Part shown: one piece after another, positions 34,927 through 43,130 of the stretch
Numbering within the stretch: position 1 is the first letter of the stretch
Layout of the letters: each line of letters opens with the position of its first letter
Assembly (NCBI GenBank): GCA_963712745.1
Contig: CAVQJC010000020.1
Span: forward strand, 96,001 to 160,000
Length of the DNA: 64,000 bases
Direction: 5' to 3'
Origin: an uncultured Chloroflexia bacterium
Lineage (GTDB): Bacteria > Chloroflexota > Limnocylindria > Limnocylindrales > CSP1-4
Made by a program: the position numbers and the translations under genes
The notes under the pieces: generated by a model
The model's input: the letters and a program-made list of their open reading frames with translations, nothing else
Told to the model about the DNA's origin: nothing
Database searches by the model: none

Positions 34927-35113
34927 TCGGCCACGTGGCTAAGTACCGATCGCGGTCGCAACGTCTACACTGGCACCATCGCAAGAACGCGCTCTCGTTG
35001 ATTCCTGTCGCGGCACCTCCGGGTCGGTGCCCTGCGCGATACGCGCTGATACGAATGTGACCGCCCTGGACCTGGCCCTGAGGGTGGGCGGCACGACGAC
35101 AGCAAGGATCCGC

Positions 35114-36367
<1,254 letters not shown>

Positions 36368-36376
36368 GGTCCAACG

Positions 36377-38947
36377 CTAGCCGACGGCTAGCAGCTCCCC
36401 GCGGGCGAAGGCGCGGACGCGGATGTCGCGCGCCACGTCGTCGGCGACTTCGATGAGGTGGCGTCGGAGCAGGTCGCGGTCAGCGGCCAGCCCGGCGGCG
36501 AAGACGCGGATGCGCTCCAGCTCTGAGGGCTCCGCCCACAGATCCGGCACGAGCCAGCGCAGGTAGGCCTCCGCGTACGCATGGTCCCGGGTGGCATAGA
36601 CGTCCTCGACCGACTCGTAGAACCGTTCGCGGTACGGCAGCAGCAGCTCCCGCTGGTGGTGCCACTGGAAGCCGCTGATGGCTGCTCGCGTGAGGTAGTC
36701 GGAACCGTATCCCGCGCCGTTGATCCGCTCCCAGGCGTCGAGCTTGACACCAGCCTCGGGACGGCTGACCTGGGCCCGGATAGCCGCGCGCTGCCCGCGG
36801 TCGGAGCGGTCGCGGCCTCGCTCTGCGACGATCCGTTCGGCGGCGCCATCGAGGGCGAACGCCATCGCCTTTGTGGCCAGCGTCCAGCGGAGCTGCTGAT
36901 CAGCTGCGAACCCCTCGACCGACCAACGTCCGTCGACCAGGCCCAACAGCTCGGTGATATCGTCGGGTGCCGTCGCGAGCGCAGCGGCAGTGCGAGCCCA
37001 CACCAGGCGCAGATCGGGGTCGTCCGCCGCGCGCAAGGCGCCCATCGCCGCCCGCGTCAGGGACGCCGCGCTGGACTCGCGCAGCTCCTCGGGCACGTAG
37101 CGTCGCTGGGCCACCCTGGCGCGGTCGACGATGGCCTCGACCAGGGCCCGGTCTGTCTCGCGTGGCGCGAACTGGCGCACCGCCTCGAGGTACTCGGTCG
37201 AGCGCAGCCCCTCGGCCCGCACCATCTCCCATAGCGTCGACCACACCTGCTGGCGCAGCATGGCATCGGGCAAGTCCGGCAGGCGTTCGAGCGCGAAGTC
37301 CAACGAGCGCTCATCGAGCGCCACGAGCGCGTAGTCGTGGTCGCCGTGGTTGGGATAGACGAATGCGGGCGCGGAAAGGCCGCTCGCCTCAGGCACGGCC
37401 TGGCGCTCGCCTTCGATGCTCACGGGGATGGCTTCGATGGACAGGGCCCCATCCTCGTCTGCACTGACCAGCGCGATGACCGTGGCGTGCGGACGCAGCG
37501 TGGCGTTCGACTCCTCCGCGGACTGGACCACCTCCAGGGACTCGATGGCTCCGCCGTCGGCGAGCCATTCCACGCCGATGGTGTTCAGCGAGGGCGTCTG
37601 GAGCCACAGCCGGGCCCACTCGTCAAGCGGCTCTCCGGCGGCCTCACCGAGGGCACCGAGGAAGTCGGCCAGGGTGGCGTTGCCCCAGGCATGGCGGTCG
37701 ACGTAACGATGCAGGCCGCGGCGGAAGGCATCGTCACCCAGCCGGGCCACCAGCTGCTTGAGGACGGCCGCGCCTTTCTCGTAGGTGATGGCGTCGAAGT
37801 TGCCGATGGCCTGGTCGGTGTGCTCGACACGCGTGGCTACCGGATGGGTGGTGGCCAGCTGATCCTGTCGGTAGGCGGCCGGTCGCATCTGGCCGTTGAA
37901 GACCTGCCAGGCGTCCTCGAAACGCGTCGCTTCCGCCAGGCAGCGATAGGAGAGGTAGGTCGCGAAGGTCTCATTGAGCCACAGATCGTCCCACCAGCGC
38001 ATGGTCACGAGATCACCGAACCACATGTGTGCCAGCTCATGGAGGATGACCTCAGCGCGCATCAGGCGCTGGCTGTAGCTGGGCGGATCGCGGAACAGGA
38101 AGCTGTCGTGGAACGCGACCGCCCCCACGTTCTCCATGGCGCCCGCGTTGAACTCGGGCACGAAGAGCTGGTCGTACTTGCCGAAGGGAAACGGTCGTCC
38201 GAAGAGGTCGGCGAAGTAGTCCAGGCCCTGGGCGGTGACCTCGAAGATCTCGTCGGCGCTCCGTTCGAGCTCCGTCACCATGGAGGCTCGACCGTAGACG
38301 CCCAACGGGATGCCGTCATGCCCCGACTCGACACGCACGAAGGGGCCGGCGAGGAGCGCGAAGACGTACGTCGAGAAGCGCGAGGTGCGCGGGAATTCGT
38401 GCAGCCGGCGGCTGCCGGCCAGGGGGCTGATGTCGACCGCGGCATCCGAGCTGACCACCTGCCACTCGCGCGGAACAGTGACCATCGGGCGGTATGTGGC
38501 CTTGATATCCGGCTGGTCGAAGCTGGGGAAGAGCCGGTGCGCCGAGAACGGTTCGAGGTTGCTGTAGACGTAGCTCTCCCCGTCCTCGGGGTCGATGAAG
38601 TGGTGGAGTCCGTCGCCGGTGTCGTCGTAGTGGTTCTCGTACTCGATGATGACCCGGTTGTGGGTCCGCAGGCAGTCCGGCCGCAGCCACAGCCGGCTGT
38701 CGCGGTGGTCGGGCTCTTCCTCGGTGCCGTTCACGGTCAACCGCCGGACCAGGCCGCTGAAGTCCAGGAAGAGAGGCTGATCGCGTGATTCGAGGTGGAA
38801 GGTGATGATGACGTGGCCGGTGTAGGTCTCGCGGCCCTCGGTCAACTCGAGACTCAGCTCGTAGTCGACCGTATGGACGCGCACCGCTCGCTCGGCCGCC
38901 TCGTGGCGGAAGAGGACATCGCGTCCGTGGCCGCCATGCGCTGTCAT
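36377..38947 (-). CDS. pepN: Aminopeptidase N (M1)
   Basis: GAMEN, HELAHMWFGDLVT, WLNE, ITYEKGA. Confidence 0.95.
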   Translation of the reverse strand: MTAHGGHGRDVLFRHEAAERAVRVHTVDYELSLELTEGRETYTGHVIITFHLESRDQPLFLDFSGLVRRLTVNGTEEEPDHRDSRLWLRPDCLRTHNRVIIEYENHYDDTGDGLHHFIDPEDGESYVYSNLEPFSAHRLFPSFDQPDIKATYRPMVTVPREWQVVSSDAAVDISPLAGSRRLHEFPRTSRFSTYVFALLAGPFVRVESGHDGIPLGVYGRASMVTELERSADEIFEVTAQGLDYFADLFGRPFPFGKYDQLFVPEFNAGAMENVGAVAFHDSFLFRDPPSYSQRLMRAEVILHELAHMWFGDLVTMRWWDDLWLNETFATYLSYRCLAEATRFEDAWQVFNGQMRPAAYRQDQLATTHPVATRVEHTDQAIGNFDAITYEKGAAVLKQLVARLGDDAFRRGLHRYVDRHAWGNATLADFLGALGEAAGEPLDEWARLWLQTPSLNTIGVEWLADGGAIESLEVVQSAEESNATLRPHATVIALVSADEDGALSIEAIPVSIEGERQAVPEASGLSAPAFVYPNHGDHDYALVALDERSLDFALERLPDLPDAMLRQQVWSTLWEMVRAEGLRSTEYLEAVRQFAPRETDRALVEAIVDRARVAQRRYVPEELRESSAASLTRAAMGALRAADDPDLRLVWARTAAALATAPDDITELLGLVDGRWSVEGFAADQQLRWTLATKAMAFALDGAAERIVAERGRDRSDRGQRAAIRAQVSRPEAGVKLDAWERINGAGYGSDYLTRAAISGFQWHHQRELLLPYRERFYESVEDVYATRDHAYAEAYLRWLVPDLWAEPSELERIRVFAAGLAADRDLLRRHLIEVADDVARDIRVRAFARGELLAVG

Positions 38948-39113
38948 CGTGGGCAGACGTTCCTCGTGGCGACGGAGACTCTAGGAAGTCTAGCGTGCAG
39001 CCCCTTATCTGCCACTTATCTGGGGAGGGTGGGCCATTCCGTCAGGACAGCCAAGCCCAAGACCAAGCCCAAGCCCCGAGAGGCTCGATGCCTCTTTGTG
39101 TCACTCTCTAGGT

Positions 39114-40325
39114 ATGTCCTCTGTACCCCCCTCCACTTCCGCGGCTGACCTGCTGCGATCCATCGGCCTGGAAGTCGACGGGCCCGCACGCTGGGGCTCC
39201 AAGCCGACCAGCCGCTCTCCAGGGATCTTCGTGGTGGAGACCCCTGCCGCTTCCGATTCCGCACCCATCGACATCGACGAGGTCCGACGCTGGCTCGAGC
39301 GGGTGCCCGACCTGCGCCTGGACGGCGAACGGCCCACGCAGACGACGTTGGCCGAGCGATTGCGTTCGTTCTGGGTCCCCGGTCAGTCGCTGCTCTACGT
39401 CGGACGGACGTCCAAGAGTCTGAGTGCGCGAGTGGCCTCGCTCTACGCCACCGAACTCGGCCATGCGCGACCGCATCCGGGCGGCTACTGGCTCAAGACC
39501 CTGCGGGATCAGAGCCGGTTGAGACTGTGGTGGGCGGAGACCGATGCTCCCGAGGAGTACGAGGACGAGCTCATCGAGATCTTCGCCAGCGCCATCCCCG
39601 AGGACATCCGGCGGCAGCTGCCGGAAGGCGCGCCCCTGCTCCCGTGGGCGAACCTAGACTCACCCACCGGTCCTACCCGGGAGACCGGTGTCCAGTCTGC
39701 GCTCCTGTCGGTCGAGGTGACTCCGACCAAGACGTCGAACGTCAAGCGGTCCGACCGATCGGGTCGCAAGCGCAGTGCCCCCGCGGCTTCGGGCGCCGCC
39801 CGAAGCCCCCGCCGCACTGCGGCCAAGGCCGCCTCTGGCAACGGCGCCGCGGCTGCCTCGCCGCCCAGGGAAGCTCCCACCCACGTGACGGCCCAGGGCC
39901 TGGTGGCCATGCAGGCAGAACTCGGACGGCTCAAGACCGAGGAGCGGCCGCAGGTGGTCGACCGCGTCAAGAACGCGCGTGAGCTGGGTGACCTGCGCGA
40001 GAACGCCGATTACGAGGCCGCGCGCAACGAGCAGTCATTCCTCGAGGGCCGCATCCTCGAGCTGGAGCGCCGGGTGCGGACCGCCGAGGTCATCGAAGCC
40101 GGAACCAGCGGCTCCATCTCGATGGGCTCGACCGTGGTCTACGAGGTCGACGGCGAGCAGGACGAGCTGACGATCGTGGGCTCCACTGAGTCGGACCCGG
40201 CCAACGGCAAGATCAGCGCCGCCTCGCCGGTGGGCAAGGCACTGCTGGGGCATCGCGGCGGGGATGACGTGGTCGTGACCACGCCGGCGGCGTCGATCCG
40301 CTACCGCATCGTAGAGGTCAAGTAG
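39114..40325 (+). CDS. greA: GIY-YIG-like domain fused to transcription elongation factor GreA
   Basis: C-terminal GDLRENADYEAAR...ISAASPVGKALLG (GreA); N-terminal PGIFVV...LLYVGRTSKSLSARV...EDELI...LPWANL; single open frame. Confidence 0.85.
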   Translation: MSSVPPSTSAADLLRSIGLEVDGPARWGSKPTSRSPGIFVVETPAASDSAPIDIDEVRRWLERVPDLRLDGERPTQTTLAERLRSFWVPGQSLLYVGRTSKSLSARVASLYATELGHARPHPGGYWLKTLRDQSRLRLWWAETDAPEEYEDELIEIFASAIPEDIRRQLPEGAPLLPWANLDSPTGPTRETGVQSALLSVEVTPTKTSNVKRSDRSGRKRSAPAASGAARSPRRTAAKAASGNGAAAASPPREAPTHVTAQGLVAMQAELGRLKTEERPQVVDRVKNARELGDLRENADYEAARNEQSFLEGRILELERRVRTAEVIEAGTSGSISMGSTVVYEVDGEQDELTIVGSTESDPANGKISAASPVGKALLGHRGGDDVVVTTPAASIRYRIVEVK

Positions 40326-40374: not shown

Positions 40375-41199
40375 CTAGCGGGGTCGCGGTCGCGCGAGCT
40401 TGCGGTCACGGCGTGCACCCGCTTCGCCCGTGTCGCCGACATCGCGCCAGCGCTTGGGTGACTTCGGCGCGTGGGCCGGCACGGTCCGGACCTGCCTGAG
40501 CCAGCCGGCACGGCCGTCGGCTGTGACCACCCCGAGCCAGCGCTCCCCGCGTGTGGTGGTCTTGGCGGCTTGCACCCGCAGCACCTGACCGTCCCGAAGC
40601 TGTCCACGCTCGGGCCAGAGACGTCCGCCGACCGACAGCCTCAGCCGCTGCTCGCTGCCCGAGCGACGCCAGTCGCCCTTGCGCGCGCGAGAGCTGGTCC
40701 GCGCGGGCATCGGTGCGCCACCCTCGGGTGCCCGTCTGCGAAGGCGCATGATGTTGGTCACGTAGCCCCTGGCGTAGGCCGACCAGTACATCTCCGGGTC
40801 GGTCTTGCCGGTGAGCCACCAGTAGGCCACGCGCTTCCACGAACCGAGCCAGCCGAAGAGGTCGCGCAGCTTGCCGTAGGCCACTCGTTCCTGGTTGTAG
40901 GGCGTCTGGTCGGCCCGGCGGTCGCCGAGGTACTTCCCGGCCCACGAGGGCCAGTTGAAGGGCATGATCTGGTACTTGCCGAAAGCACCTGAGCTGCGGT
41001 TGCGCGCGTAGTAGTCCCAGCCCGACTCCTGGCCGGCCATGGCCCACATGAAACGGGTGATGTCGTCTCGGCCGGGGCTGCCGGCCATGGCGCTCCCACC
41101 CGCGGCCAGGCCCAGGCCACCAGCCACGATGACGGCCGCGAGGACGAGCACGGCAAGGCGGCCGAACCGCGGCAGGGACAGGCTTGCGGGCTGGGGCAT
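40375..41199 (-). CDS. Secreted lytic transglycosylase-like protein with C-terminal SH3-like domain
   Basis: Signal/TM; QESGWDY, SGAFGKYQIMP, YVTNIM; WLGVVTADGRAGWL. Confidence 0.78.
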   Translation of the reverse strand: MPQPASLSLPRFGRLAVLVLAAVIVAGGLGLAAGGSAMAGSPGRDDITRFMWAMAGQESGWDYYARNRSSGAFGKYQIMPFNWPSWAGKYLGDRRADQTPYNQERVAYGKLRDLFGWLGSWKRVAYWWLTGKTDPEMYWSAYARGYVTNIMRLRRRAPEGGAPMPARTSSRARKGDWRRSGSEQRLRLSVGGRLWPERGQLRDGQVLRVQAAKTTTRGERWLGVVTADGRAGWLRQVRTVPAHAPKSPKRWRDVGDTGEAGARRDRKLARPRPR

Positions 41200-41376
41200 G
41201 GACGACGGTTCCTCCACCGGACACGGACGGTCGGACTGACGCACAGCCTCGCCATCGCCGGGGCCGTCGGCAAGGGGACGATGGTCGGGTTCGGGGGTGG
41301 TCCTGTGGGGCCTGGTGCGGGCAGGAGCGGTTGGCCAGCGCAGCGTCGACAGAGCGGGACTGGGCGCTGCCGCCGG

Positions 41377-42890: not shown

Positions 42891-42925
42891 GTGACACGGT
42901 AGCTGGCACGGCCGTCGCGCAACGT
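42891..42925 (+). promoter_or_regulatory. Conserved promoter motif, copy 1
   Basis: gtgacacggtagctggcacgg; CTGGCAC-N10-CAACGT. Confidence 0.6.
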
Positions 42926-42977
42926 GTGTCCCAGGCCGGTGCTTGCCGGCCGTCGAAAGAGCCCGGAGGACACACAG

Positions 42978-43130
42978 ATGGTCACGCTCACCTGCCCCTG
43001 GTGCGACGAGACATCCCTCCTCGCCTTCACGGAGCTGACAGAGTGCGAGGCGTCCTTCACCTGCGCCGAGTGCGGGACCTCGGTCGCCTTCGTAGACGAG
43101 CCGGAGATCGACCTCGAGCTGGCCGCCTGA
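42978..43130 (+). CDS. Small acidic Zn-ribbon protein (50 aa)
   Basis: GGAGG RBS; CPWC and CAEC; C-terminal ELAA. Confidence 0.78.
   Translation: MVTLTCPWCDETSLLAFTELTECEASFTCAECGTSVAFVDEPEIDLELAA

Follow-up and report, generated by a model that had tools for sequence, protein, structure and literature searches.

A GIY-YIG-like domain fused to a complete GreA in a family of Chloroflexota

Described Gre architectures and the fusion protein

Gre factors are usually minimal two-domain proteins, the N-terminus of GreA sits outside the secondary channel of RNA polymerase (RNAP), and accessory domains on Gre factors are, to our knowledge, rare and uncharacterised. The protein described here carries such a domain. 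It is encoded at 39114..40325 (+) of a 64,000-nucleotide (nt) stretch of an uncultured Chloroflexia bacterium (assembly GCA_963712745.1, contig CAVQJC010000020.1, positions 96,001 to 160,000; this stretch is termed the window and provides the coordinates unless a contig is named) and consists, in this order, of a GIY-YIG-like N-terminal domain of ~200 amino acids (aa; the N-domain), a disordered basic linker of ~50 aa and a complete GreA. Canonical GreA/GreB proteins, e.g. Escherichia coli GreA (PDB 1grj), share the coiled coil, the acidic tip and the C-terminal globular domain with the window protein, which differs by ~255 additional N-terminal residues that include a folded domain and the linker. 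A GreA at the C-terminus of a longer protein is also found in two family models, NF004969 ('transcript cleavage factor/unknown domain fusion protein', 718 positions) and NF011309 (906 positions), whose N-terminal part is likewise without assigned function and which presumably were built from chlamydiae and spirochaetes. However, the window protein matches the GreA part of these models only (46.1 bits against a cut-off of 697 and 86.7 bits against 714), and their N-terminal regions are therefore regarded as unrelated to its own.

A Gre-type domain has also been reported in predicted conflict systems, in which a variable effector, including DNases of the restriction endonuclease (REase) and HNH types, is combined with TPR, GreA/B-C and PIN domains, and their genes are described as sporadic, rapidly evolving defence genes (Kaur et al., 2021; PMC8195603). 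These systems resemble the window protein in that a Gre-type RNAP-docking domain would bring another enzymatic domain to RNAP, and they differ in using the C-terminal domain of GreA/B only, whereas the window protein contains a whole GreA with its catalytic tip. Further differences are that the window protein lacks TPR and PIN domains according to Pfam, that PADLOC, which holds no model for the N-domain family, returned no match among eight family members, that the GIY-YIG-like N-domain is degenerate and that the gene is present family-wide (44/44 genomes) in a conserved neighbourhood. In comparison to the GIY-YIG nucleases T4 endonuclease II (EndoII; 2wsh), the UvrC N-terminal domain (1ycz/1yd6), I-TevI (1ln0) and R.Eco29kI (3mx4), the window protein presents a Phe instead of the GIY Tyr, no Pfam match of the N-domain at any threshold, blocks of its own (LLRSxGL..DGP.RWG and PHxGGHWLK) and the fusion to GreA. 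A stand-alone family of ~200 aa is homologous to the N-domain over its full length, but its members are unfused, retain the catalytic motif residues (40/42) and are patchily distributed across phyla. A preliminary description of the locus, prepared from the sequence alone, knew of no characterised example, and a family-wide fusion of GreA with a GIY-YIG fold is indeed not described in the literature searched: 'GIY-YIG' and 'GreA' are not mentioned together there, and the terms 'Gre factor', 'domain architecture' and 'fused' yielded no paper, while the supplementary architecture tables of PMC8195603, which lay outside this search, might list related fusions.

The fusion is contained in a single open reading frame (ORF) that was already recognised in the preliminary description with all of its quoted motifs, the intact GreA with its acidic pair and the basic Ala/Ser/Arg linker. 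The start codon is ambiguous: the ATG at 39114 gives 403 aa plus stop, and the TTG at 39096 extends the ORF (39096..40325, +) to 409 aa; homologues of ~400 aa share the architecture. No clear Shine-Dalgarno sequence was found, and a promoter and terminator scan detected no sigma-70-like promoter. Residues 256-403 cover GreA end to end, with the N-terminal coiled coil (PF03449 GreA_GreB_N, residues 258-326, 39885..40091 (+); 86.9 bits, cut-off 24.5, E 1e-24) followed by the C-terminal globular domain (PF01272 GreA_GreB, residues 332-403, 40107..40322 (+); 80.1 bits, cut-off 26.9, E 1.2e-22), and the NCBIfam models NF001263 'GreA' (155.3 bits, cut-off 145) and TIGR01462 (150.8 bits, cut-off 139) are also matched above their thresholds; agreement of this degree lies well outside what chance would give. 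The acidic tip GDLRENADY (residues 292-300, 39987-40013, +) contains D293 and E296, which we take to be the equivalents of E. coli D41/E44 at the tip of the coiled coil and which are nearly invariant in the clade of the window protein. Because the tip motif is intact in 136/139 fusion proteins and in 33/33 fusion genome loci, the fused GreA looks like a working cleavage factor and not like a Gfh1-like inhibitor. The linker (residues ~203-250, 39720..39863, +) is rich in Ala, Ser and Arg (14 A, 9 S and 8 R per 57 residues), and among 134 fusion proteins it measures 48-130 aa (median 56) and is always in frame. In the full-length model (predicted template modelling score (pTM) 0.52), two confident domains, with helices of the GreA coiled coil at 260-290 and 298-322, are separated by residues 203-250 at a predicted local distance difference test (pLDDT) score of 33-45, and the linker is thus modelled as a flexible tether. 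At its beginning, the otherwise variable linker presents the sequence [VI][KR]RSD, which is conserved in the window clade (VKRSD in the window protein, residues 209-213, 39738-39752) and may represent a short linear motif.

Searches with the N-terminal 200 aa of the window protein retrieved 800 proteins at E<=1e-3. Among the 120 listed, 114 proteins of ~400 aa bear GreA Pfam domains, and the six that do not (227-318 aa) stem in five cases from contigs of at most 5.1 kb. When 151 genomes of the source genome's class were searched in six frames, the N-domain turned up in 44/44 members of the source genome's own family; the counts for the remaining families were 0/6, 0/49, 1/50 and 0/1. For ten other genomes that were sampled in both the N-domain and the GreA survey, the two matches are adjacent in one open frame in nine; the exception, G005, joins its N-domain to a different, unassigned C-terminal region, as does locus L009 (G125) of the same genus. 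Among public species genomes, 33 of the 80 retrieved loci are GreA fusions (34 are stand-alone and 13 other), and all 33 belong to records that submitters labelled Chloroflexota, Limnocylindrales or similar. Since the frame stays open across a linker of such variable length in 134 fusion proteins, the fusion is not an assembly artefact, and the survey of relatives proposed in the preliminary description found it to be conserved. Within the window clade (28 full-length rows), the linker averages 33.0% pairwise identity, compared with 64.8% in the N-domain and 70.8% in the GreA part, which indicates that the N-domain is not decaying but is under purifying selection as a whole. The conservation of an open linker also argues that the full-length product is made. 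The source DNA stretch or parts of it are present in estuary, sediment, soil and wetland metagenomes (14 studies), and three metatranscriptome runs provided one contig each that matches a section of the gene exactly, namely its 5' end (39000-39165, X18), the N-domain (39357-39507, X19) and the GreA part (39968-40118, X20). None of these three contigs bridges the linker and, as they show no transcript ends and DNA carry-over is possible, they settle neither expression nor the use of an internal start.

The fusion is an extra GreA paralogue beside an ordinary greA. The same genome encodes a stand-alone GreA of 156 aa with the tip GDVTENAEY, to which the fused GreA part is 44% identical, and a GreA survey of 41 family genomes identified at least one match in 40 and at least two in 32. 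The stand-alone greA gene is present twice in near-identical form with similar flanks on different contigs (G000:C1:433976-434416, L001, and G000:C2:116659-117099, L002). The source genome comprises 4.2 Mb at a contamination of 5.03%, relatives have 2.4-3.8 Mb, and the paired copies may stem from a duplication of this region or from a bin that mixes two strains.

Fold and relatives of the N-terminal domain

The N-domain (39114..39713, +; residues ~1-200 with a folded core at ~9-198) can be classified, by its modelled structure and by profile comparison, as a divergent domain of the GIY-YIG alpha/beta fold that is homologous to GIY-YIG nucleases. An AlphaFold2 model calculated from a 33-row alignment reached a pLDDT of 84.7 and a pTM of 0.82, with a poor segment at 179-185 (pLDDT <50). 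The preliminary description had recognised the GIY-YIG signature from motif order. The top seven structural matches of VIA-align are all GIY-YIG nucleases, although at modest Z scores (6.5-3.6), and Foldseek against the PDB returned nothing for the N-domain model at E<=1e-3, its top two rows being R.Eco29kI at E 0.5. The VIA-align superposition with I-TevI begins at model residue 35, which faces chain residue 2, so that F39 would face Y6 of I-TevI if the first aligned residues are ungapped.

Residues 1-255 have no Pfam or NCBIfam match, and the window N-domain hits no Pfam family at E<=1. Scanning 40 aligned members with Pfam detected PF20815 and PF01541 in 9/40 each, all below cut-off (best E 0.003 and 0.0055), and these are the only Pfam families matched by more than three members. 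A profile of the fusion clade finds only GreA, Gfh1 and Rnk among PDB sequences (1grj GreA, 3.6e-35) and nothing for the N-domain, while a profile of stand-alone members has its best hmmsearch match in T4 EndoII (E 0.077, over YIGK..RKR), with UvrC third. The connection is provided by these stand-alone relatives, which phmmer links to the window N-domain at E<=1e-27. Compared by hhalign with a profile of bona fide UvrC GIY-YIG domains, taken from 15 genomes of this phylum, they align with 95.6% probability (E 1.2e-8, 84 columns), and the YIG motif (facing YVGKA), the Arg and E150 each lie opposite the corresponding UvrC residues. With the profile of the window clade itself, the match keeps this register but is weaker (35.4%, E 3.9e-4), and comparisons with small URI-type GIY-YIG domains are not significant (8.4% and 0.4%). 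Among PHROGs, only weak matches to phrog_1111 ('endonuclease') were obtained, for two of six proteins (E 0.0016 and 0.0074). In a protein atlas, considered as a lead only, the nearest named clusters are GIY-YIG (scores 0.93 and 0.92).

The motif residues of the window protein follow the canonical order. G37-I38-F39 lie within PGIFVV, and the alignment to the stand-alone relatives places F39 (39228..39230, +) at the GIY tyrosine, as the preliminary description had proposed. LLYVGRTSKSLSARV provides the YIG half-motif Y95-V96-G97 and the Arg-helix residue R106 (39396..39431, +), placed by hhalign to UvrC and, through the stand-alone profile, by hmmsearch to T4 EndoII. GHARPHPGG comes next, followed by EDELIEIF with E150 (39561..39563, +), the candidate metal-binding Glu, for which the alignment of the stand-alone profile with UvrC gives the Glu in the 'LE..LIK' helix as counterpart. 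Finally, N180 in LPWANL (39651..39653, +) is the candidate GIY-YIG Asn on the basis of motif order only: it follows the Glu helix in the right order, in a segment where the model is of low confidence (179-185) and without alignment to a known Asn. The YIG half-motif and R106 are invariant and E150 is nearly invariant in the window clade, R106 being aligned to the Arg of both UvrC and EndoII.

An exhaustive phmmer search with the N-domain yielded 881 clusters at 50% identity (E<=1e-3), many of them stand-alone proteins of ~200 aa, so that the relatives define a widespread GIY-YIG family which no Pfam model recognises above threshold. The stand-alone homologues span the full N-domain (E down to 1e-35, 31-42% identity) and the family consensus, PGVYVV ... 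ILYIGKT..L..RV..Y ... PHxGGHWLK ... E..LL..F ... PFANLE, presents the canonical GIY, YIG, Arg, Glu and Asn elements in order. Outside the GIY-YIG core, the blocks LLRSxGLxVDGPxRWG and PHxGGHWLK are specific to the family. Stand-alone members are found dispersed among Bacillota, Bacteroidota, Proteobacteria, Acidobacteriota and Planctomycetota, with further copies in a Mycolicibacterium and in archaeal metagenome-assembled genomes, and include records of Syntrophomonas zehnderi, Bacteroides neonati and Mycolicibacterium pulveris. The only recurrent neighbourhood of these genes is a prophage head module, in 5/34 loci, where the gene lies between the terminase large subunit gene and the genes for portal, ClpP-type protease and major capsid proteins. 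This position and the patchy spread suggest that the stand-alone homologue is a phage-associated nuclease in the prophage-borne lineages. The five loci are L013, L014 (Syntrophomonas zehnderi, L014:5920-6609, with Pfam-confirmed neighbours), L016, L017 and L018; a location between terminase and portal or capsid genes is typical for phage accessory or homing-type nucleases. In addition, C-terminal extensions of ~100-350 aa without Pfam match were observed in L009 (G125), P0165, L028, L033, L043, L045, P0243, P0238, P0223, P0252 and P0234; these members keep the full catalytic motif and have no adjacent helicase gene.

Catalytic residues in stand-alone and fused members

From the best 150 of the 881 phmmer clusters, the 98 sequences that cover the whole N-domain were retained (52 partial ones were left out) and classed by hidden Markov models into 42 stand-alone, 21 GreA-fused and 35 other or extended members. 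The motif is nearly complete in the first class and eroded in the second. All seven residues are kept in 40/42 stand-alone members versus 1/21 fused members, with 22/35 for the other or extended class. Y39 is present in 42/42 stand-alone domains and in 8/21 fused domains, which otherwise have F (11), L (1) or V (1) at this site, and H121 is kept in 42/42 and 6/21, respectively. The other positions show retention of 41/42 versus 13/21 for Y95, 42/42 versus 15/21 for E150, 41/42 versus 14/21 for N180 and 42/42 versus 19/21 for both G97 and R106. In the window protein F39 replaces the GIY Tyr, and Phe is nearly invariant at this site throughout its clade. In a quick maximum-likelihood tree of 99 N-domains (midpoint root, many forks open), all 22 GreA rows fall within a single clade of 37 rows (Shimodaira-Hasegawa-like approximate likelihood ratio test (SH-aLRT) 98), whose remaining 15 rows are 'other' or short forms, several of them resembling truncated fusions. 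As the GreA rows form one clade and the six-residue pattern YYRHEN survives complete in 3/37 of its rows compared with 60/62 of the rows elsewhere, the data fit a single fusion event that was followed by repeated loss of catalytic residues.

Possible roles of the fusion and neighbouring genes

Given roughly an even chance, the favoured explanation is that the protein is a specialised Gre paralogue with a domesticated nucleic-acid-binding module of little or no catalytic activity. The GreA part would, as expected from its family membership, dock in the secondary channel of RNAP and promote the cleavage of backtracked RNA, and the disordered basic linker of ~50 aa would connect it with a domain whose ancestor was a stand-alone GIY-YIG nuclease, a type that phages carry in some lineages. 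The fusion would have arisen once in the Chloroflexota (Limnocylindrales-labelled) family, after which the nuclease active site would have come under relaxed constraint while the whole domain stayed under purifying selection; because of this combination, the N-domain is most likely non-catalytic or barely catalytic. It probably binds nucleic acid or recognises a structure, with no or very weak cleavage, and could keep the Gre factor at particular DNA or RNA structures close to the polymerase, or bring or direct it there, possibly in joint work with an often adjacent RhlE-like RNA helicase. With the GreA N-terminus outside the secondary channel, a tether of ~50 residues would allow the N-domain to reach nucleic acid around the polymerase. 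The lesion 'sensor' that the preliminary description had offered beside a nuclease is a plausible hypothesis. The fusion, which keeps its cleavage-factor module intact and whose accessory domain is shared by an entire bacterial family that is plentiful in soils and sediments, shows a clear evolutionary path: a nuclease that phages carry in some lineages was joined to GreA in one event, and its active site was then dismantled step by step. It thus offers a clean natural example of how a nuclease can be domesticated, probably into a module that targets the transcription machinery, and it yields concrete constructs with which to ask what additional information is open to a factor of the secondary channel.

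The RhlE-like DEAD-box helicase of the window is encoded at 35027..36367 (+), with Pfam DEAD and Helicase_C matches and RhlE as best NCBIfam model (534 bits, below cut-off), and is separated from the fusion by an M1 aminopeptidase gene (36377-38947, -) at the upstream flank. The neighbourhood was surveyed by tblastn with the real genes of the window, as an all-versus-all clustering of ORFs from the fusion loci was confounded by spurious overlapping high-GC ORFs and was dropped. A homologue of the helicase lies within ~4 kb in 26/33 fusion loci, only 27 of which have at least 3 kb of upstream sequence, and is located directly upstream on the same strand in 12/33; the M1 aminopeptidase gene intervenes in only 9/33. 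Near the stand-alone genes the helicase was found in 0/34 loci, apart from one weak match of 32%, and it is present at 2/13 other loci, both of which resemble truncated or frame-split fusions. Since the fusion genomes are related to one another, this linkage is a hint of a functional pair and not a proof.

Several observations weigh against a domesticated module, and they point in two directions. Towards catalysis, only the first Tyr was lost in the window clade, where the other six of the seven motif residues, including R106, E150 and N180, are invariant or nearly so, which keeps residual activity alive as an explanation; the N-domain is under purifying selection, the exchange of Tyr for Phe is structurally conservative, P0138 and L006 have the full motif though fused, a linked RhlE-like helicase could expose substrates and, as Hpy188I illustrates, GIY-YIG sites tolerate a naturally exchanged YIG Tyr (PMC2630997). 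Towards protein contacts, a nucleic-acid-processing site erodes while the domain stays conserved, the helicase gene is linked in 26/33 loci and the blocks LLRSxGLxVDGPxRWG and PHxGGHWLK lie outside the GIY-YIG core.

The first direction would lead to an active nuclease tethered to RNAP, an unlikely outcome in which GreA delivers the N-domain to backtracked polymerase and the latter cuts DNA, nascent RNA or R-loops, perhaps with another general base. Such a GreA-docked endonuclease, riding on backtracked or stalled RNAP with a substitute general base and nicking DNA, the transcript or R-loop RNA with the co-located RhlE-like helicase, would constitute a transcription-coupled clearance pathway distinct from Mfd/UvrABC, although with the same low likelihood. 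The nature of the lost residue speaks against it: the role of general base has been proposed for the GIY Tyr, and both tyrosines proved necessary in mutagenesis (PMC3045582). In Eco29kI, the published data (PMC1952068, Table 1) list 0% cleavage for Y49A with DNA binding retained (Kd 49 versus 16 nM), and the PDB entry 3nic is titled 'inactive variant Y49F'. Moreover, fused lineages lose more than this Tyr (H121, E150 and N180 are retained in 6, 15 and 14 of the 21, respectively), which is unexpected if catalysis is selected. The delivery of an active nuclease to stalled complexes, as put forward in the preliminary description, is not supported in that form, with the GIY Tyr lost and all seven residues kept in just one of 21 fused lineages. 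Its suggestion of an Mfd-independent link to repair fares no better. Neither uvrC nor a true uvrB nor any PF01541 GIY-YIG domain was found in the source genome, which is 84.55% complete, and this absence is most likely a gap in the assembly; uvrC is present in 39/40 other family genomes, the same genus included, and an mfd homologue lies on the same contig outside the window (G000:C20:233751-236665; L090, L091). For these reasons, there is no sign that the fusion fills an excision-repair gap, and its role as a substitute for a missing incision step of nucleotide excision repair was rejected. The mfd homologue is distributed over several frames, one with an in-frame TAG, and is either a pseudogene or affected by assembly indel errors.

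In the second direction, the N-domain would be a protein-interaction or regulatory module that, instead of binding nucleic acid, either gates the attached GreA or contacts a protein partner such as the surface of RNAP, the RhlE-like helicase or a further factor. This is considered rather improbable, as the two conserved blocks are equally conserved in stand-alone relatives without GreA or a linked helicase and hence predate the fusion, and gene linkage among related genomes is weak evidence. The absence of any functional fusion, with the joint an artefact or GreA made mainly from an internal start (GTG at V258, 39885) and the upstream part dispensable, is highly improbable: an in-frame GTG with AGGGA ~14 nt upstream, RNA contigs of which none bridges the linker and the 6/120 listed close homologues lacking a GreA Pfam domain would agree with it, but 33 genome loci and 134 fusion proteins drawn from numerous assemblies keep the frame open through the linker (48-130 aa in the proteins), the conservation of the N-domain amounts to 65% identity, V, L or M at 258 is the usual hydrophobic residue at the GreA start ('YLSAEGL' in the stand-alone copy) and the genome already has an ordinary greA.

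Downstream, the fusion gene is convergent with a gene for a protein of 289 aa (40375-41244, -) that displays a weak SLT-transglycosylase-like match (E 4.7e-4) and a weak 'aggregation-promoting factor C-terminal-like' match (30.4 bits, cut-off 40), and that is conserved beside the fusion in 9/33 loci. Further downstream, a 68-aa ORF (42924-43130, +) with two CxxC pairs and a weak DUF7836 match (E 1.5e-4, below cut-off) may encode a small zinc-ribbon protein.

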